64,000 bases of DNA from a virus (taxonomy: Duplodnaviria > Heunggongvirae > Uroviricota > Caudoviricetes), in the IMG/VR virus record IMGVR_UViG_3300031414_000001, positions 32,001 through 96,000 of that record. One strand, given 5' to 3'. Below, one piece after another: positions 3,867 to 60,460 of the stretch. Below the pieces are notes generated by a model. It saw only the letters and a list, made by a program, of their open reading frames with translations, was not told where the DNA came from and made no database searches. The position numbers were made by a program, and so were the translations under genes. How positions within the stretch are numbered: the stretch's first letter is position 1; every line of letters starts with the position of its first letter.

Positions 3867-4163
3867 TTATTCCTTTTTAGTATTGTCTTCATTTATCCAT
3901 TCTGGATAAAGTAATGCTGTAAATAATTCTTCTGTCATTTCTAACTGGTCTAACAAGTAATCCAACGAGTTAGATTGGTTCGGATATTCAGTACCGAATC
4001 TTCTTGCTTCTGAGGCTGTAACCAACATGAATTTAAATTGATCTTCATCAACTGTATAAACTCTACCTTTATTCTTTGGTGTCTGGAAATATAATTTACC
4101 AGAAGGATTAGTACTTACCAGTTCTACATCATAGAAATTAAATTTTCCGTTTTCTACACTCAT
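3867..4163 (-). CDS. Hypothetical protein
   Basis: 98-aa ORF in operon orientation. Confidence 0.65.
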   Translation of the reverse strand: MSVENGKFNFYDVELVSTNPSGKLYFQTPKNKGRVYTVDEDQFKFMLVTASEARRFGTEYPNQSNSLDYLLDQLEMTEELFTALLYPEWINEDNTKKE

Positions 4164-4206
4164 AAAATTCCGACAAAAAGAAAGCCCTGACTAAGCAGGG
4201 CATAAA

Positions 4207-4527
4207 TTAGTATCCTAGACCTAAGAAGTCTGGACGTTCATCAGCAGCAGCGATAACGCCTTTCGGATAATCAACTAAATTTAAAGATACTTCATCAATA
4301 GTAATTGTTCTACTCCAACGACCATGAGCCACCAGAATCCAATCACCAGGTTTCAATTCAGTAATATCTTCACCAACGGAATATACCTTAGCCCAACGAC
4401 TATGTACACCACGTACAGTACCGTCATCATCACGAAGGACAATACCGGATTTTAATTTTTGTTCACCTGTATCTAAATCTGATACAAGGACTTTGCCTTT
4501 ACAAGCTGTAAGTACTTTCGACTCCAT
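4207..4527 (-). CDS. GroES-like co-chaperonin (copy 1)
   Basis: Start reassigned to MESKV (TAAGGA SD); mobile loop EQKLKSGIVL, VYSVG, LKPGDWIL. Confidence 0.8.
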   Translation of the reverse strand: MESKVLTACKGKVLVSDLDTGEQKLKSGIVLRDDDGTVRGVHSRWAKVYSVGEDITELKPGDWILVAHGRWSRTITIDEVSLNLVDYPKGVIAAADERPDFLGLGY

Positions 4528-4537
4528 TTGAATATCC

Positions 4538-4897
4538 TTATTCTTGATCAGCAGCGTCATCTTTAGTTTTCGCACGTTTAACTGGTGCTTTCTTTTCTTC
4601 GACTGGTTCTTGTGGTTCAATCTCGAATTGAGCATCATCGAAACCTGTATCTGCGAAGTCAAAAGTATCTGGAGCCATTGAATGGCTTTGATGCTCTGGA
4701 CTAATATCAGGTTTCTGTAGTTCACGTTCACGTTCAGCTAATAGATCTTCACGCTTCTTAATAACTGTGCCGCCTCGACCGATAATATCACCACGTGCGT
4801 TCATATTGGCATTGCCAATAGCTACACTATGTTGGTGCTGGAACTTCAACATTTCCATATCGATCTTCTGACCGCGATAGCTAGTGTGTTTCTTCAT
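4538..4897 (-). CDS. Hypothetical protein
   Basis: 119-aa ORF directly behind a TGAAAT-N17-TATAAT promoter. Confidence 0.7.
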   Translation of the reverse strand: MKKHTSYRGQKIDMEMLKFQHQHSVAIGNANMNARGDIIGRGGTVIKKREDLLAERERELQKPDISPEHQSHSMAPDTFDFADTGFDDAQFEIEPQEPVEEKKAPVKRAKTKDDAADQE

Positions 4898-4923
4898 AAA
4901 AATCCCTTTTCATTTGTAGGTAC

Positions 4924-4952
4924 ATTATACCATAAATTTTGTTACCATTTCA
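4924..4952 (-). promoter_or_regulatory. Phage middle-type promoter TGAAAT-N17-TATAAT
   Basis: Member of the 13-copy motif. Confidence 0.7.
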
Positions 4953-5460
4953 AAAATTCGTTAACATCTAAGTCGTATTTAATAGAATCTACCATGTGTA
5001 GTTCTATCAGGAATAGACAATAGCTGCTTACTGAACTTCCACGACCTAAACCCCAAAAGATATTATGTTCTTTTAGATAATCTACCAGCCATATCATACA
5101 GCGAAGCAGTTTAGTCATGTTATAGCTTTCATATAATCCCAATTCATACAGTACTCGTTCACGTTGAACATCAGTACTGCATAAATTAAGGAAGTAGTCT
5201 TCTAGATTGATTTTATCATAAGCTGAGTCATAACGCCATAGTTCATGATTCCTATCATGCTCTATAGTGTAATCTAGCATACGTTCTTCTAATCCGAACT
5301 TACGACAATTATCGTTGAACTTCAATCGTTCAGCTTCGTCTTGTTCGTTAAGCTGGATATAACTTATATCAGCACCGCAGTTGATAGCGTACACAACTGC
5401 GTTTAGATCTAAGCGAACGTCACCATCCTCGCTTATAGTTCGATTTCCTTGTACTTTCAT
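4942..5460 (-). CDS. DNA polymerase III alpha (DnaE)-like protein, N-terminal fragment
   Basis: RVLYEL...WGLGRGSSVSSY...VDSIKYDL..EFL matches DnaE RL..EL...GPGRGSGAGSL...[14 protein letters not shown]; start set at MKVQG. Confidence 0.8.
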   Translation of the reverse strand: MKVQGNRTISEDGDVRLDLNAVVYAINCGADISYIQLNEQDEAERLKFNDNCRKFGLEERMLDYTIEHDRNHELWRYDSAYDKINLEDYFLNLCSTDVQRERVLYELGLYESYNMTKLLRCMIWLVDYLKEHNIFWGLGRGSSVSSYCLFLIELHMVDSIKYDLDVNEFLKW

Positions 5461-5737
5461 TCTTTTTGTCTTCAGTTCCAGTGTTAATATAACTGTCCGA
5501 ATCAAATACAGTTTTGTTGTCTGCTTCTTTCTGTTGAGCTTCTAAGTCAGATTTAGCCTGACGAGTTCGAAGTTCTTCTTCGCATGAGCGAATAACAGAG
5601 AACATTTGCTGTATAATTTCGTACTGTACACCAGCAGAACGTGCTGATGAAATACGCATTGAGACTTCATTGATTTTATCATAAAGCTCTTGATTGCTTA
5701 AAGAAGAAGTATCAAAAAATGGATGGAACATACACAT
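5420..5737 (-). CDS. Hypothetical protein
   Basis: 105-aa helical ORF overlapping the dnaE-N start. Confidence 0.65.
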   Translation of the reverse strand: MCMFHPFFDTSSLSNQELYDKINEVSMRISSARSAGVQYEIIQQMFSVIRSCEEELRTRQAKSDLEAQQKEADNKTVFDSDSYINTGTEDKKNESTRKSNYKRGW

Positions 5738-5742
5738 CCCCC

Positions 5743-8112
5743 TTATTGAAATAGATTTGGCACTTTTAATGTTGCCGTAAAGTTTTCACGCTCATAACGA
5801 GCATTATCTTGAACATAGTAACTAAATTCTACCCCTGTAACTTCGAACTCATAATTCAATAACGCACCATGTTCATTATTCTGAATTAGTGTGTTGAAGA
5901 ATGTTTCACCCTGTCCTGGCTGTAAGTAAGCAACTACAATTCCAGGGAAGTATTCGGCTTGAATATTATCTTCGATATAAGGATGGTTCATGAAGCGTGG
6001 TACAGTATCTATCATTTCATCTGATAGACCACCAATAGCATCAACTACGATTCCACGGTTATTTAGATCTGTAGGGTCGGTTAGCAAGTTAACGGTATCT
6101 TCACCAAGAACTAGATATACGTTTTGACGTAATCCAAAGATTTCAGAAATGATTGAATTGCTATAATCAGTATACACAAGTGGATTCAAACTAAGACTTA
6201 CTTGAGTTCCTTCAGGGTGTACTTCTCTGTATAGTACATCATACAGTACGTTTCCTGCGTTGTCAAGGGCTGAACGAACTTTATAGTTACCAAGTACTAA
6301 ACGGAATGATCCGTCAGGCGTTGGAGCACCACTAGTTGTGTTCACTATACCATTACGAATGTTAGTAACAGTTTGTTTAATACCAGGCCAATTATGAGTT
6401 GTGTCCACATAGTTTTCTTTTAGAAGAATACGAGGAACTTTACGAACACCATAACGAGGATCAGAAGCACGATAGTACTGAGCTTGACTGAATGCTGTAG
6501 TACTGATGGTATTGAACCAAGTACGTTCCATTGTCAAAGATGGTTGAATATCAGCACTGATAAAGTTCTGACCGAAACCGCGAACAATTGTAATGTTGAA
6601 ACGTTGGGTTAATGATTTACCATTTTTTCCAGTTGCTACTACATCGAACTCTAATTTAATATCATCGTTCGCTGAGAAGTCTGTGCTTAAAGCATACGCA
6701 GTACCAATCATAAATCCATCAGCACTTAAATCTAATCCGTACTTACGAATATCATTCGGTGAAGTACTTTCATTGATTTCGTATGTGATTAAGTCAGAAC
6801 CACTGGCAACAATTTTAGGATACACAGTATGACCAAAATATTCACCTACGTGAATTGTACCTAAATTAGCATCAGTTTCAAATGAAATATCAGTACCAGT
6901 ATCCCCATTTAAGATAATACGGAATATTCTAGTATTGTTGATAATACCTGAACCTAATGATTCATTATAAATTCCTAAATCATACCATTTTGTAGCATCA
7001 TATGAAATTACCGGATTACCTTCAAATACATCTTCTGATACAACATAAGGATATATGGTAGTATCTTTTAATTGATATAAATGACCGCTGATTGGTACAT
7101 CATGAAAATCAGAAGTATCAGTTGGAGCAATCCAAGTTTGATAAGCACGGAAACGTTTACCGACATAATAAGCATCAGCTTCAGTACTGTAATAACGTTT
7201 AACTGAAACTACTCGAATTTTGATATAAGCATCAATTGGGTCTGAATCATAGAGCATAGTCTGAATAATCTGACCGTTGTTTCCATTGAATTTTAAGCCA
7301 GTATTAACTAAGTTGCCAGTACTGTCTTTAACAAGTAAAGGAACTTCTTCTAATAGACCATTACTTAAATCTGGAACTAAAATTGTTCCTGAACCAGTAA
7401 TATTAGTACTAGGTTTTTCTGAATCAAGAATAGTCAGTACTTCGTAAGCTGGCATGAATACATTAGTAGCACCGTTTATTGATTGACTTTTACCGAATGC
7501 TTGAACGAACAAGCGACTTTCAGCACCATAACCTACACCACCAATGGTGTATAGATTAGAACCATGAGTTGTTAATCCTGGTGTTAGCCAAATTTCGTTA
7601 GTGGTGTTATAATTCAAAGTACTTGAAGTTGTTCCGAGAACACCGCTCGGTAGCGTATTTGCTATTTGACCATCTAGCAACGTAATTACGTTGATACTGT
7701 CAATATTGAATGTTAATGATTCTGGACCATCCCATATTCCATCTTGTGGACATTCTATCTTAAAGTAATAAGCATCAATATAAGATACAGAACTTAAATC
7801 ATATGATTTAGTACTGAATTTTACTACATGCGTACCTTGAGTAGTGGATACTCCAGTTCCTGCGTTGCCAATTGGAACTAATGAAGAAGTACTTTCACCT
7901 ACACTAACTATAAAATCGCGTTCTTCTAAAGTCTCACCAGCACCGACGATGTTATAAGTAAATTCCAAGTACTGGTCATCAGTTAAAACATAAGTATTAT
8001 CGGTAGAAGTTGATTGACTCTTTTTCAAGCGTAGTCTAAAATAGGTGGTTTGTCCTTCTTGTATTGTATTGGTGTCAGCGATCAAATCCCATTGGGGTTC
8101 GAAGTTTGCCAT
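5743..8112 (-). CDS. Large virion structural protein (baseplate/tail-like, Ig-like beta repeats)
   Basis: T/S/G/N-rich beta-type sequence; GGAG SD before MANFEP; TAAATA at 8145-8150. Confidence 0.6.
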   Translation of the reverse strand: MANFEPQWDLIADTNTIQEGQTTYFRLRLKKSQSTSTDNTYVLTDDQYLEFTYNIVGAGETLEERDFIVSVGESTSSLVPIGNAGTGVSTTQGTHVVKFSTKSYDLSSVSYIDAYYFKIECPQDGIWDGPESLTFNIDSINVITLLDGQIANTLPSGVLGTTSSTLNYNTTNEIWLTPGLTTHGSNLYTIGGVGYGAESRLFVQAFGKSQSINGATNVFMPAYEVLTILDSEKPSTNITGSGTILVPDLSNGLLEEVPLLVKDSTGNLVNTGLKFNGNNGQIIQTMLYDSDPIDAYIKIRVVSVKRYYSTEADAYYVGKRFRAYQTWIAPTDTSDFHDVPISGHLYQLKDTTIYPYVVSEDVFEGNPVISYDATKWYDLGIYNESLGSGIINNTRIFRIILNGDTGTDISFETDANLGTIHVGEYFGHTVYPKIVASGSDLITYEINESTSPNDIRKYGLDLSADGFMIGTAYALSTDFSANDDIKLEFDVVATGKNGKSLTQRFNITIVRGFGQNFISADIQPSLTMERTWFNTISTTAFSQAQYYRASDPRYGVRKVPRILLKENYVDTTHNWPGIKQTVTNIRNGIVNTTSGAPTPDGSFRLVLGNYKVRSALDNAGNVLYDVLYREVHPEGTQVSLSLNPLVYTDYSNSIISEIFGLRQNVYLVLGEDTVNLLTDPTDLNNRGIVVDAIGGLSDEMIDTVPRFMNHPYIEDNIQAEYFPGIVVAYLQPGQGETFFNTLIQNNEHGALLNYEFEVTGVEFSYYVQDNARYERENFTATLKVPNLFQ

Positions 8113-8172
8113 ATCTAATCTCCAAAACATAAAAAGCTTTGTCGTATTTATTCTATGGGCTTAATTAAAAAT

Positions 8173-8193
8173 AAAGGACGCCGAAGCGTCCTT
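8173..8193 (-). terminator. Intrinsic terminator, AAGGACGC-stem family
   Basis: aaggacgc-cgaa-gcgtcctt (UUCG loop on the minus strand) after the topoisomerase gene. Confidence 0.75.
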
Positions 8194-8198
8194 AAAAA

Positions 8199-9614
8199 TT
8201 ATTCATCATCATCTTTATAGACGATGTTCATGTTACGAAGTTCTATGAGTTCTTCTTCGTAGATTTTCCAAATCTTGTCATGATTCTCTAGCAAATCATT
8301 GTATTCATCCATCTTCGCTAAGGCATCTTCAATTTCTTGATTTACCTTAACGTAGTTTTCTTTAGTCCAACGATACGCCGCGAAGTTCACGATGTTCTGT
8401 ACGTTTTCCTCGGATGCTTCAATTTCAGCATTCAATGAGGTTACAAAGTCAACAACTTCCGCACGGTTCTCAAATTCTTTAATCTTAACAGTCATGTCGT
8501 TTTCAAAACATTCTTTAACCAGAATCTTATAACGCACTTCTGCGTCAGCATCGGCTAGAAGTTTCTCATAACGCTTGATGTAGTATTTGAATCGGAACTC
8601 AACGAAGTCCGAGATTATATCTTGAACAGTGTTGTAACTTTTTACTTTTCCGTTTTCACCTAAAACATTGAGGGTATGTGCCAATTTTGTTGAAATGTCA
8701 AAATACTGAAGCACATCCATTTCTGACCATGAAGCCGAAAGACCACGTGGTAGTTTTATGGTAATGTCAACCTTACCAGAACTGTTATCATCGTAGCTAC
8801 GGATTTTACCTGAATCTTCCATTGCGATCAAGTCCTCAACGAATTTTTCTAGTTTCATACGTGGAGCTAGACCAGTAATACGAACAGTACTTGCATCGAT
8901 TACTTCAGCTTTACCGAAGAAAGTATACTTACCTTCGCCACGGTCTTCAACATAATCGTTCGCACCATAACTTGCGTAGTACGGCATCATTTCTAAAAGT
9001 TCTTCACCACGGATAGCACGGAGAGTGTTCTCAATGATTTCGTTCATACGATATGGGAAGATAAAACTTTTATACGCTGTCGCAGTACCATCAACGCCAA
9101 GTAGTGCTAATGGAATAATTGGTAGGAAGAACTTAGGTTCCATTGTAGTACCGTCATAGTTTTCCTGCATCGGTACAACATCCATATCACGAAGTACTAA
9201 AGCTTCGGTGAGTTTGGTTTTCTTCACATATGTATAACGTGGGCTTGCTGGTTCAGGGTTAACCTGAGTACCAAATCCACCACGCTTACCAATAAGTGGA
9301 TAGTTGTTCACAACTGGACTTGCTAGGTTCTGTAGAGTACCACTAGCAGAAGCATCACCATGAAGATAGATACCATCACTAATCATACGACCAGCACAAG
9401 ATACAGTTTTGATTTCACCACTTACTTTACTCAAAGTGAAGATAGCTTTACGCTGTGAGTTTTTGAAACCATCAATCCCAGGTAGAGCACGATCAAAAGT
9501 ACTCAAAGCATATTCTAGGGATGATTGGTTGATATAGTCTGAGCTACCATAGCCTAACAGAGTTAGAGCATTAGGTACAATCTCAGCTTGGGTTTTCTTT
9601 GTTGATTTACGCAT
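8199..9614 (-). CDS. 52: Type II topoisomerase, GyrA/ParC-like subunit (T4 gp52)
   Basis: RALPGIDGFK..QRK, YLHGDAS, catalytic ASPRYT, EPKFFLP. Confidence 0.93.
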   Translation of the reverse strand: MRKSTKKTQAEIVPNALTLLGYGSSDYINQSSLEYALSTFDRALPGIDGFKNSQRKAIFTLSKVSGEIKTVSCAGRMISDGIYLHGDASASGTLQNLASPVVNNYPLIGKRGGFGTQVNPEPASPRYTYVKKTKLTEALVLRDMDVVPMQENYDGTTMEPKFFLPIIPLALLGVDGTATAYKSFIFPYRMNEIIENTLRAIRGEELLEMMPYYASYGANDYVEDRGEGKYTFFGKAEVIDASTVRITGLAPRMKLEKFVEDLIAMEDSGKIRSYDDNSSGKVDITIKLPRGLSASWSEMDVLQYFDISTKLAHTLNVLGENGKVKSYNTVQDIISDFVEFRFKYYIKRYEKLLADADAEVRYKILVKECFENDMTVKIKEFENRAEVVDFVTSLNAEIEASEENVQNIVNFAAYRWTKENYVKVNQEIEDALAKMDEYNDLLENHDKIWKIYEEELIELRNMNIVYKDDDE

Positions 9615-11683: not shown

Positions 11684-11712
11684 ATTATAGCATAAATTGT
11701 TTCTTTGTTCCA
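11684..11712 (-). promoter_or_regulatory. Phage middle-type promoter TGGAAC-N17-TATAAT
   Basis: 13-copy motif, upstream of the topoisomerase genes. Confidence 0.75.
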
Positions 11713-38314: not shown

Positions 38315-38668
38315 ATGAATGAATATAAAACTTATCCGTTCGTGACTATTATTGAACACGACGATATAATCTATTATGGGATTATCAAAATCAAAAGTAA
38401 ACAATACATGACATTGTACTGCTTCTCTGAGATGGATGAATCCCTTCAAGAAGAACTGCTATTACTAGCTAATAACTGGTGGTGGCAAAGTAATCGAACC
38501 ATTCCTATTTGCTTATTCATGCAAGAAGAAATGGAAAAATTTGAACCATATACCAAACGATTTAACACTGACCAAGTGAAAGTTCATAGCGGTCCAGTTA
38601 TTTCTTTAAGTGATCTACCTACTAAACGTATTAAACGTCGCAACGTTGCTCTTAAGAAGCGGAAGTGA
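38315..38668 (+). CDS. Hypothetical protein
   Basis: 117-aa plus-strand ORF (WWWQSNRTIPI), TAAATA at 38274-38279. Confidence 0.7.
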   Translation: MNEYKTYPFVTIIEHDDIIYYGIIKIKSKQYMTLYCFSEMDESLQEELLLLANNWWWQSNRTIPICLFMQEEMEKFEPYTKRFNTDQVKVHSGPVISLSDLPTKRIKRRNVALKKRK

Positions 38669-39302
38669 TGTATTCAACCAATGCGTTTAACTGAACAACA
38701 ATCATCAAACTATAAGCGTATGCATGAGGCTTTTTGAAGTATCTTAACTTCCGACCTTCAGCATCAAGACCAATACCCTCATAATCCCAAATCACTGCCC
38801 TTACTTCATCCCAACTATTCATACTCTGACATTGACGCTTACCTGGACGAATCATAGCAATAAACATTGCCAATTCATCTATGCTTTTAGGCTTCCAGAT
38901 GTGGAGCAACGTAATGTGCTTCTTAATCTGAGATAGTTCTTCTACGAATTCCGGTACTAATAATAGATCCCAATCAGGCTCTTTGTTCATTAACTCCTTC
39001 AAATGATCCCTATCACGAACATGCTCATAAGCCGATTGAGACAGAATATCAACTTTTTGATATCCTAATCTTTCGGCTTCTTTATATTGTATGCTTGATA
39101 ATCCACTAATTGGATCTACAGGTATATTATCGAAGTGAACACCACTATTGTGTGGGATCAAACCATCTTCTGTAATCTTCTCTACACTTCTAGTACAGGG
39201 AAGTTGCTCTATCACTGACTTTCCATCTTTAAAGTCAATATCAATATCAGTTCGAGCTTTACGGTAATTAATAGTTTGAGAACTCTTGTGATCCGTATCC
39301 AT
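38652..39302 (-). CDS. DNA polymerase III alpha (DnaE)-like protein, C-terminal catalytic fragment
   Basis: TDIDIDF (DnaE PDFDVDF), HNSGV, GYQKVDIL (third Asp), AMIRPG, FKKPHAYAY. Confidence 0.85.
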   Translation of the reverse strand: MDTDHKSSQTINYRKARTDIDIDFKDGKSVIEQLPCTRSVEKITEDGLIPHNSGVHFDNIPVDPISGLSSIQYKEAERLGYQKVDILSQSAYEHVRDRDHLKELMNKEPDWDLLLVPEFVEELSQIKKHITLLHIWKPKSIDELAMFIAMIRPGKRQCQSMNSWDEVRAVIWDYEGIGLDAEGRKLRYFKKPHAYAYSLMIVVQLNALVEYITSAS

Positions 39303-42161: not shown

Positions 42162-42190
42162 ATTATAGCACAAAAATGCTACTCATTCCA
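42162..42190 (-). promoter_or_regulatory. Phage middle-type promoter TGGAAT-N17-TATAAT
   Basis: 13-copy motif. Confidence 0.75.
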
Positions 42191-57430: not shown

Positions 57431-60400
57431 TTACCAACCGAAGAAACCAGTGTTTAATTCGATTGAACTCTTTTCGTCTATAGCAATATCCATATCCAGA
57501 ATACCGAAGATATTACCCAATTTCTTTGTCAGTACTGCCAATTCCATAGCATCATCATCGAACGGAAGTTCTAGATACCACTCTGGTAAGTAATCTACAC
57601 AGTCAATTGGATAACCAATCTTCTTAATACCTAATGGATTCGGTTTTAGGTCACAAACAATTACTTTAGTACCGTCTGTTGCTTCTGGAACTGATTTATC
57701 ATCGTTCAAATCACGAAGTTTGTTCCATTGAATAGCGGCTAGTACGTGTCCTACCTTACATTTACCTGTATCCTGGTATTCTTTCTCTTTATTGGTATAG
57801 TTTTTCACTGTTTTTGGTGAACCTTTCTCAATACTTGGCTTGTCTTTGAACTCTTTCTTGAACGCACGAACACGTTTACGTAGTTCTTCTTCAGTTTCAC
57901 CCACCAGCAACGCAATTAGCGTTTCTTCTAGGAAGTTCTGGATGTATTTTGGTGTGTCTGAACGTTTAATTTCAAGACCCATAGCTTTGATTTTACCAGG
58001 TTTACCATCCACATCTAAACGGAACCCATCTTCCCAATATTTCAGAATAGCATAACGCTTCTTCTTCAAGAATAAACCACGAGAACCAACCATTTCTAAG
58101 TCAGCACCAACGATTTTACCCTTTTCAATACCAGTATTAAAGGTTTGATCCATAAATTCAGGGAATGATGCACCTACAGTGTCACCAATCATTTGATAAA
58201 GTTCTACAACTTCATCTTTAGACATTTCAAATGGAATGTCATTCTCTTTGTAGTAATGTGCTACGCTGAAATACACGGAATCCGTGTCACCATATACAAC
58301 TACACCACCACTATGATCGTATGTTTCAGTACATACTTCATTAATCTTACTCGCCATGTGCTTAGTCATGCTACGACCAGTTAATGTAACTGATTGTCCT
58401 AGACGTTTGTCGAAGAAACGTGAACCTTTGTTCAACAACGCACCATATAGTGAGTTTAGAAGAATCTTACGAATCTGTTGGTTCTGTTTCCAGAACGCAG
58501 ACTGAGTTTTACAGTACTTTTTATCGGAATCTTGTACGAATACACGACCATTCTCTAAACGCATACCATTATCAGCGATAATCTTAGCAAGTTCAGCATA
58601 ATTCTTGTCAGCAAGAGCTAAACGCATCAGATAAATCGGATCACCTTCGTGCAAGTTCGTTTTATGGATACCAGCACCAAATTGTAGTGATTTTAGTACT
58701 TCTTCAAGTTCTTGTAAAGCTTCTTCTGGCATTTCCCAACCATCTGTTGCCAGGTGTTTGTAGTCAATAACCATTTTCTGTTGTGCTTTACGTTCTGAGT
58801 ACCATACTGTAAGAATTTCTGGAATTACACCGTACTTAGTCTTATCAAATAGAGTACCGTTCGCACTTAGTACGATAGTACTGTCTTCACTAAAGATAAT
58901 ATCATATAATTCCGCACCTGTAGCTTGGAAACTTGTACCATCTTCTAGATCTACAGTAATGATTTCGTCAGATTTCTCACGAACCATTGTAAATTCAACA
59001 CTTGCGAACAAACCGTGCCATGCTTCAGTATATTTCGGCTCAAAACGTCCTTTTCCGCGATAACGCTGACGTTGTTCCTCAATACGTGCTGCTAGATAAG
59101 CTTCAGTATAAGTTTGACGTAGTTGACCAAGGATACATTCAGTACTCATGCCTAAAGCACGTAGAACTGTTGGATATAGTGAGTTAAAGTCCGTACAACC
59201 TAACCAATCAATCAATCCTAGTACTGGATCTTGTACCCAAGCACCAGCAGCCTTAGAACCTTTAGGTTGTTCGTCTTCATCATCTTCATCGTCATCATAA
59301 TCAATTTCGTAGTCCTGATATTCGAAATCAGCTTCATCATCATCAAGTTTACGCTTGTTGAATACTACTTCACCACGTTGGTGAGCCAGATTGATGATTG
59401 CCGTGTCAATTAGTGCTACTGAACCCATTGTAGTACTGATAAGTACACATTCTTTGTGTGCTAGTCGGTTATGTAGGTTGATGAAGTCCATTTTCTCGTC
59501 TATTTTCTTCAACAAGATACTATCTTGCTTAGAATAACGTAAGAATGTCATGTAATCTTCACGATATAACTTATCCAAAGACCCATCATAGGATACTTTG
59601 TTCTCGCCAGTTACTTTTTCAGCAATATAATCTAGTTTATATGACTGTTCTACTTGTCCAGCATGTTTCTTATAAAGAGCTAGATAGTCTAGGTGAACAC
59701 GTCCAACTAAATCAAAGGTTACAATGGTTTTACCAAACATATCTGCTTCACGAGCGTTTGGTTTCTTGTTCCATAAGCACCAACGAGCAAGAGTAGCTTC
59801 ATTAAAGAGCTTTCTTGTACGGTTTACCATGTATGGAATATCAAAGAATTCGCTGTTCCAGCCAGAGAGTACGTCGCCGTCTTCAATTAGCTCGAAGAAC
59901 GTTTCAAACATCTCTGTTTCTTCAGTATAGAGGATGACAATACTATCAGGATTGTCAGTTTCCGCATTGAGGCGGTTAATAATGTCCTGAGCTTCATGGA
60001 TTTCCATACCAGATGGAGCCATTGTAAGAACATAGTCCTTACCTGTCCAGCTTTGGTACAAAGAAATTGCTGTTACTCGGTTGAATGGATCACTCGGCTG
60101 AGCATATCCGAACTTAGGGTGAAAGTCTGTTTCAATATCGAAGAATACGATATTAAGGTCAGGAGAAGACTTACCCATGTAATGTTTCGCAAGGGTTTTA
60201 AATGTCACATTACAATCTGCTTCATAAATCTTAGCAGAAACAGGTAATGATTCCATTTGTTTTTTCATATCTGAATAGCGAGAGAACTCAAACTTCTCGG
60301 CAAAAGTGCCATTGATAGTTTTATGTTCACCACGTGGAGATTCTACATAGTACTCGTATACTGGTTCAATTTCGCGTAGAACACGACGACCATTAATACG

Positions 60401-60460
60401 TTCAGCAACGTGTAGTACTTCTCCAGTACGTTTCCTATCCATATATCCATCTATATACAT
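57431..60460 (-). CDS. 43: B-family DNA polymerase (T4 gp43-like)
   Basis: Exonuclease FDIET, WNSEFFD; polymerase DFNSLYP, KILLNSLYG, YGDTDS, KKRY. Confidence 0.97.
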   Translation of the reverse strand: MYIDGYMDRKRTGEVLHVAERINGRRVLREIEPVYEYYVESPRGEHKTINGTFAEKFEFSRYSDMKKQMESLPVSAKIYEADCNVTFKTLAKHYMGKSSPDLNIVFFDIETDFHPKFGYAQPSDPFNRVTAISLYQSWTGKDYVLTMAPSGMEIHEAQDIINRLNAETDNPDSIVILYTEETEMFETFFELIEDGDVLSGWNSEFFDIPYMVNRTRKLFNEATLARWCLWNKKPNAREADMFGKTIVTFDLVGRVHLDYLALYKKHAGQVEQSYKLDYIAEKVTGENKVSYDGSLDKLYREDYMTFLRYSKQDSILLKKIDEKMDFINLHNRLAHKECVLISTTMGSVALIDTAIINLAHQRGEVVFNKRKLDDDEADFEYQDYEIDYDDDEDDEDEQPKGSKAAGAWVQDPVLGLIDWLGCTDFNSLYPTVLRALGMSTECILGQLRQTYTEAYLAARIEEQRQRYRGKGRFEPKYTEAWHGLFASVEFTMVREKSDEIITVDLEDGTSFQATGAELYDIIFSEDSTIVLSANGTLFDKTKYGVIPEILTVWYSERKAQQKMVIDYKHLATDGWEMPEEALQELEEVLKSLQFGAGIHKTNLHEGDPIYLMRLALADKNYAELAKIIADNGMRLENGRVFVQDSDKKYCKTQSAFWKQNQQIRKILLNSLYGALLNKGSRFFDKRLGQSVTLTGRSMTKHMASKINEVCTETYDHSGGVVVYGDTDSVYFSVAHYYKENDIPFEMSKDEVVELYQMIGDTVGASFPEFMDQTFNTGIEKGKIVGADLEMVGSRGLFLKKKRYAILKYWEDGFRLDVDGKPGKIKAMGLEIKRSDTPKYIQNFLEETLIALLVGETEEELRKRVRAFKKEFKDKPSIEKGSPKTVKNYTNKEKEYQDTGKCKVGHVLAAIQWNKLRDLNDDKSVPEATDGTKVIVCDLKPNPLGIKKIGYPIDCVDYLPEWYLELPFDDDAMELAVLTKKLGNIFGILDMDIAIDEKSSIELNTGFFGW

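Follow-up and report, generated by a model that had tools for sequence, protein, structure and literature searches.

Two distant genes of a Rak2-like jumbo phage as probable complementary pieces of a minimal C-family polymerase core

A split and minimal form of the DNA polymerase III alpha subunit has been described in the group 2.2 jumbo phages by Iyer, Anantharaman, Krishnan, Burroughs and Aravind (2021, Viruses 13:63, PMC7824862), and it was proposed to help in the synthesis of one strand or in repair, beside a family B polymerase. The split polymerase is thus already known from sequence analysis since 2021. The genome papers of the phages CBB and Atu_ph07 saw the N half only, the former as a truncated alpha subunit and the latter as a Pol III alpha subunit. 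The omics paper on PA5oct is silent on the split polymerase genes, and we found no experimental follow-up of the split Pol III alpha in the full-text literature. Atu_ph07, which is one of the named group 2.2 phages, carries the same split-polymerase family as the phage described here.

The DNA analysed here (the window) is a stretch of 64,000 nucleotides, bases 32001-96000 of a viral record of 370,971 bases. In a 5-kb test stretch (window 4000-9000) the identity is 91% to Erwinia phage Kaldavass and to Xanthomonas phage XbC2, and about 79% to both Cronobacter phage GAP32 and Pectobacterium phage CBB; the phage is therefore a Rak2-like jumbo myovirus. It has a family B polymerase of its own, a 1009-aa ORF at window 57431-60460 with PF00136 in a 1012-codon open frame, and no PolA was found in the phage genome. 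An RFC-like clamp loader, a primase and a DnaB-like helicase are annotated in the 91% identical Kaldavass. A first, sequence-only reading of the window had proposed a split DnaE, with the N fragment ending where a C fragment 33 kb away begins. Both ORFs are real as that reading gave them and both are on the minus strand, the N-half gene at 4942..5460 (172 aa) and the C-half gene at 38652..39302 (216 aa). They are placed amid replication genes, the N half flanked by topoisomerase II genes and a clamp-loader gene, and the C half by a helicase gene and primase/DnaB-like genes.

The immediate surroundings of both genes have features that recur in other phages. A gene for a GroES-like co-chaperonin is located just downstream of the N-half gene (window 4207-4731, minus strand). 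Such a gene directly follows the N half in the relatives from Erwinia and Serratia as well, and also in Sinorhizobium phage Phosso, which is only distantly related. The arrangement is conserved, though the polymerase halves are never linked. At the other gene, the last 17 nt of the C-half gene are shared with a 117-aa ORF that runs on the opposite strand (window 38315-38668, plus strand), and the annotations of CBB (CBB_288), GAP32 (GAP32_283), PBECO4 and RaK2 (ORF125) show this convergent overlap as well.

The N half consists of an N-terminal domain followed by the N-terminal region of the C-family large palm subdomain. Its product ends with EFLKW and the stop at 4942. The open frame extends to a TTG at 5505, and the ATG at 5460 is the start in the homologues, in PHROG 11127 and in the Kaldavass annotation. 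It matches Pfam PF07733 (DNA_pol3_alpha), positions 21-95, with 33.9 bits at a cut-off of 23.9, and PF07733 is above the cut-off in 31/31 homologues; the match to PHROG 11127, 'DNA polymerase', has an E of 5e-84, and the profile of the family aligns to residues 322-392 of E. coli alpha (E 0.0014). The AlphaFold model of the N half (pLDDT 85.6) was compared with reference structures of bacterial Pol III alpha, DnaE1 and PolC (PDB 2hnh, 4jom, 5lew, 3e0d and 3f2c) using VIA-align. Residues 72-172 superimpose on residues 276-394 of E. coli alpha with Z 9.0-9.6, an rmsd of 2.8 and about 98 aligned residues, on M. tuberculosis DnaE1 307-414 with Z 10.0, on PolC 822-965 with Z 9.2 and on T. aquaticus alpha 293-456 with Z 5.9-8.2. 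No unrelated structure matched the N half at Z 2 or more.

The first 71 residues (5248..5460, minus strand) form a small strand-and-helix domain, located at the place of the PHP domain in bacterial alpha. No structural match was found to this domain and no region of alpha matched it; its best score in the Atlas, 0.84, is at noise level. A similarity of the N-terminal 70 residues to Pfam DUF6648 was dropped, as it reached 20.6 bits at a cut-off of 27 and was seen in only 2/31 members.

The C half carries the remaining palm with the catalytic carboxylates, and shortened index and middle fingers. It starts at 39302 with a variable leader of 17 residues, followed by T-D-I-D-I-D-F. The match to PHROG 11778, 'DNA polymerase', has an E of 1e-107; against Pfam the C half alone gives a sub-threshold finger-domain match only, and PF17657 is matched by 8/31 homologues at E 3e-5 or better. 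The family profile is colinear with three segments of M. tuberculosis DnaE1, although weakly overall (E 0.032), and the motifs aligned are PDIDIDF (413-424), G..K.D to RPG (568-668) and F.KSHA (773-787). The AlphaFold model has a pLDDT of 90.3. In Foldseek the E of the C half is weak, about 0.006, and for each half the top 13-16 PDB matches are all Pol III alpha, DnaE1 or PolC. VIA-align placed residues 11-215 on E. coli alpha 394-781 (Z 7.4-8.6), M. tuberculosis DnaE1 414-811 (Z 9.1), T. aquaticus alpha 455-841 (Z 9.2) and PolC 966-1296 (Z 9.2). The structural matches of both halves are C-family polymerases exclusively, down to Z 5.5-5.9, and the next unrelated structure for the C half comes at Z 4.0. 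In several GenBank records the homologues of the C half (GAP32_282, CBB_287 and those of the pEa_SNUABM phages) are labelled 'putative membrane protein' on the basis of one TMHMM helix. The hydrophobic helix, residues 191-215, is in the model the finger helix that follows the K-S-H motif, and the label is, judging from the predicted fold, probably wrong.

The two halves are contiguous on DnaE, as had been proposed, and the junction is the same in all four reference structures (E. coli, M. tuberculosis, T. aquaticus and PolC). On E. coli alpha the N half covers residues 276-394 and the C half 394-781, so that the split immediately precedes the strand with the catalytic Asp-x-Asp. In conserved sequence the N family extends to EFLK, which corresponds to RFLN393 in E. 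coli, and it stops 0-10 residues past the last palm helix in 31/31 members; in many members of the C family the start is 1-3 residues ahead of the first Asp (E. coli D401). The linker that is unaccounted for is at most about seven residues. The start point of the C half is approximate because the first 18 or so residues of the model have low pLDDT. In the conserved cores only E. coli 394-400, approximately, is left unmatched, and the proposal that the halves neither overlap nor leave a gap to speak of therefore holds. In a recent cryo-EM study of E. coli alpha, DNA binding left residues 271-393 of the large palm as they were, whereas the remaining palm, with D401 and D403, moved (bioRxiv 10.64898/2026.06.29.735100). 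The phage break at about 393/394 coincides with this reported boundary between the rigid part and the mobile catalytic palm, and it is therefore a natural mechanical boundary.

Complementary halves are thus what the two genes encode, but not a whole DnaE, as together they amount to about 390 aa compared to about 1160 aa. 'Split DnaE' overstates what is there, as the pair lacks a PHP domain, outer fingers and the clamp/OB/tau-binding region, and apparently most or all of the thumb. No match to the PHP domain (PF02811) was found in the whole 371-kb genome, and the control was detected in 14/14 genomes. From the DxD strand to the K-x-D motif the C half has about 60 residues (D23 to K83) as compared to about 150 in E. 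coli, so that the thumb is probably absent or cut down to a hairpin, at most a remnant. A beta-hairpin at residues 37-56 of the AlphaFold model could be this remnant. The index finger, from RPG to the K-S-H helix, is likewise reduced, about 30 residues against about 110 in E. coli. The chain stops at about E. coli 781, and it consequently lacks the outer fingers as well as the clamp-binding, OB and tau-binding regions. Lacking clamp-binding, OB and PHP domains, the halves would need other partners for duplex binding and processivity. No further alpha-like piece was found in the phage genome; a candidate third piece of DnaE at genome 229051-229311, outside the window (PF07733, 15 bits, E 0.002), is interrupted by a TAG and coincides in part with an ORF resembling cytidine/dCMP deaminases, and was rejected as a chance match.

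Residue conservation was counted in 31 members of each half family and mapped onto the E. coli active site of the 2026 cryo-EM preprint (bioRxiv 10.64898/2026.06.29.735100), which is also the source of the E. coli functions given here. In the N half, the GS motif R140-G141-S142 (5035..5043, minus strand) corresponds to R362-G363-S364, which binds the incoming dNTP, and is invariant in 31/31. The other motifs are all in the C half and on the same strand. D19-I-D21-I-D23 (39234..39248) is the metal-binding strand D401-F-D403-V-D405, where D401 and D403 are ligands of metal B; D19 and D23 are kept in 31/31 members and D21 in 30/31. K83-V-D85 (39048..39056), with both the Lys and the Asp kept in 31/31, corresponds to K553, which contacts the primer-terminal phosphate and whose replacement in K553A gives an inactive enzyme, and to D555, the third catalytic Asp. 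R152-P153-G154 (38841..38849) is the equivalent of R639-P640-G641, located within 4 Å of the templating nucleotide; R152 and P153 are kept in 31/31 members, and the third position is G, A or S. K190-K191-P192-H193 (38724..38735) aligns with N757-K758-S759-H760, of which H760 is the steric gate against rNTPs, and K190 and H193 are conserved in 31/31 members. One position differs: E. coli R390 aligns with a nearly invariant Glu, E168 (window 4957-4959), in 28/31 N-half members, with a conserved Lys or Arg three residues further on (K171). R390 is within 4 Å of the dNTP, and the R390A replacement lowers the catalytic efficiency 27-fold (bioRxiv 10.64898/2026.06.29.735100).

A complete active site is found in neither protein; its residues are divided between the halves, and invariant or nearly so. 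That they are split between two proteins and still near-invariant makes a heterodimer a reasonable inference. We consider it likely that the two gene products are complementary pieces of a single, minimal core of a C-family (Pol III alpha-like) polymerase, pieces that would assemble into an accessory enzyme. The N protein would contribute the rigid region at the N-terminal side of the large palm, which includes the nucleotide-binding GS motif, as well as the 70-residue domain at the PHP place. From the C protein would come the strand with the two metal-binding Asp, the small palm with the Lys and the third Asp, and the shortened fingers, in which RPG would contact the template and the His would be the steric gate. 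As for the mechanism, non-covalent binding of the two proteins, which would rebuild the sheet of the Pol-beta fold, is the most likely. Such a complex may extend a primer along a template with dNTPs, as an accessory enzyme next to the family B replicase, and its possible roles would be in repair, gap filling or the synthesis of one strand.

It is also conceivable that the proteins do assemble, but as a nucleotidyltransferase of the Pol-beta fold with another chemistry than templated DNA synthesis, for instance untemplated tailing, primer-independent synthesis or the making of a nucleotide product for phage-host conflict. The change from R390 to Glu counts against the polymerase reading, since the equivalent of a residue close to the dNTP is here acidic, and the phage already has a complete replicase of family B (1009 aa). 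However, the equivalents of K553, of R639-P640-G641 and of H760, which touches the 2' position of the incoming sugar, are near-invariant, and this would be unexpected in an untemplated or NTP-using enzyme. Judged from the alignments, the retained contacts are those expected of a primer- and template-dependent, dNTP-selective enzyme, and the conservation of residues for primer, template and rNTP exclusion favours templated DNA synthesis. We therefore regard another chemistry as unlikely.

Equally doubtful, in our view, is the suggestion that the separation of the genes is itself a control device, where an active site exists only when both proteins are present and is gated by assembly or timing, for a job other than bulk replication. 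Such jobs could be specialised repair, origin-specific synthesis or conflict-related nucleic acid production, and if this were true the pair would make a minimal model of an ancestral C-family polymerase. The transcription signals bear on whether the halves are regulated together. A promoter-like motif, TGRAAY-N17-TATAAT, occurs in 13 copies in the window, where 0.16 would be expected, and all copies are on the minus strand. One of them, TGGAAT-N17-TATAAT at 42162..42190 (minus strand), heads a tightly packed array of six genes which ends with the C-half gene; the junctions in the array overlap or abut, and the six genes are probably co-transcribed. The N half is located downstream of another copy, at 11684, which is the nearest upstream promoter of the replication class. 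Between this promoter and the N half there is a terminator-like hairpin (8193-8174; 8 pairs, then a T-run) and also an ATAAATA box resembling a late promoter, and shared regulation of the halves is therefore no more than possible.

Two further observations were made on these signals. At window 8130-8193 (minus strand) the hairpin is followed by a AATAAATA box about 20 nt upstream of the gene for a 795-aa virion protein, and the region looks like a boundary between middle and late transcription within the replication-gene array. Another of the 13 promoter-like sites, at 4924-4952 (minus strand), has its -35 box, TGAAAT, within the last codons of the N half (L-K-W-stop), and this site would drive the next gene downstream, 4538-4897.

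The two genes are maintained together. The halves are found in about 95 and about 96 GenBank phage records with near-identical genus tallies, and in IMG/VR there are 539 loci of the N half and at least 589 of the C half. We also made a reciprocal test, where five large IMG/VR contigs picked by their N half were searched for the C half, and five vice versa. In 10/10 cases each half was present in one copy; the frames, of 172-214 codons, were separate and intact, with 52-300 kb between them. The spacing of 33 kb in the window phage compares to 11-300 kb in the relatives. Sinorhizobium phage Phosso (469 kb) has both halves 224 kb apart, and Alishewanella phage Slickus01 (OQ508957.1), with a complete and circular genome of 141,644 bp, has them 11 kb apart. 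As Slickus01 is a 141-kb phage, the split mini-Pol III is not confined to phages above 200 kb. The halves of Slickus01 adjoin RFC-like and primase/helicase genes. Neither a lack of co-occurrence nor neutral evolution, both named by the sequence-only reading as arguments against the pair, is thus seen: the N half has dN/dS values of 0.024-0.084 and the C half of 0.014-0.096 (Nei-Gojobori, six phages, dS unsaturated), which is strong purifying selection.

The family is also large. A profile search of 1.84 billion representatives gave 3119 matches at E up to 0.001, and 482 at E up to 1e-30. The best 150 of the 3119 are all 156-196 aa with the same end position in the profile, and most of the weaker matches are probably bacterial DnaE. 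A fused or longer form was found neither among these best 150 nor in a word-based search that was aimed at longer N-half relatives. The boundaries are identical across hundreds of divergent clusters.

These observations also bear on the idea that the halves are without catalytic activity, or work apart from each other, and have a structural or regulatory function in the replisome, for example as adaptors for the clamp loader, the helicase or PolB. The genes are never linked and belong to different gene arrays in the window, and the N half has an extra domain of 70 residues, all of which would fit with separate functions. Pseudoenzymes, on the other hand, usually lose their catalytic residues, and here the GS motif, the three Asp and the Lys are kept in 30-31/31 members. 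Furthermore, the strict one-to-one co-occurrence fits an obligate pair. Separate or inert proteins are for these reasons quite improbable, clearly more so than an assembled enzyme with another chemistry.

That the halves would become covalently joined, by a split intein or a trans-spliced split intron, has a precedent in the split-intein DnaE of cyanobacteria. The sequence-only reading had seen neither intein nor intron, and the searches agree with it: there was no Pfam intein/Hint match at either end at E up to 1, and no Rfam intron, or any other Rfam family, at gathering score within the window. The termini, with 0-10 residues past the palm helix in the N half and 1-3 before the Asp in the C half, are far too short to hold the two parts of a split intein, which take about 100 and about 35 residues, and we give covalent joining very little chance. 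Finally, the notion of a broken DnaE gene whose remnants are decaying, or of an artefact of assembly or annotation, which the word 'truncated' in the CBB genome paper could bring to mind, has next to no probability and is refuted by the selection far below a dN/dS of 1, the boundaries shared by hundreds of clusters and the intact paired frames in 10/10 contigs.

If the pair of complementary pieces is active as a polymerase, it would be much smaller than any other known C-family polymerase, with about 390 residues over two chains, and would make a tractable model for what the catalytic core of Pol III needs and for its origin. It would also mean that a phage with a replicase of family B, the archaeo-eukaryotic type, keeps a polymerase core of the bacterial type alongside.

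Compared to the bacterial enzymes Pol III alpha, DnaE1 and PolC, the phage pair has in common the palm of the Pol-beta fold, the GS motif, the Asp triad, the K553 equivalent, RPG and the K-S-H helix-loop-helix, and each half reaches a structural Z of about 7-10 against them (5.9-8.2 for the N half on T. aquaticus alpha). The differences are that about 390 aa are divided between two chains, whereas bacterial alpha has 1160 aa in one, that the PHP domain, the outer fingers and the clamp-binding, OB and tau-binding regions are absent and the thumb apparently largely missing, and that a Glu takes the place of R390. With the split-intein DnaE of cyanobacteria it shares that a C-family polymerase comes from two unlinked genes. 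The cyanobacterial DnaE-n and DnaE-c are full-size pieces with intein halves, ligated by protein trans-splicing, and they are split at a different site. Unlike these, the phage proteins have no intein that could be found and termini without room for one.

The closest system is the one of Iyer et al., and from the description of that family we infer that the window pair is the same split minimal Pol III alpha, as nothing essential differs. In both cases there are two stand-alone proteins from distant genes, the N protein being the NTP-binding unit and the C protein the Mg2+/template-binding unit, with no other Pol III domains, and in both a family B polymerase and T4-like replisome parts are present. 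What is added here is the residue-level position of the junction (about 393/394) and its match to the hinge, the E168-for-R390 change, the dN/dS values, the co-occurrence counts and a 141-kb phage that is not a jumbo phage. The remaining value of the split polymerase is accordingly in its biochemistry and not in its discovery.
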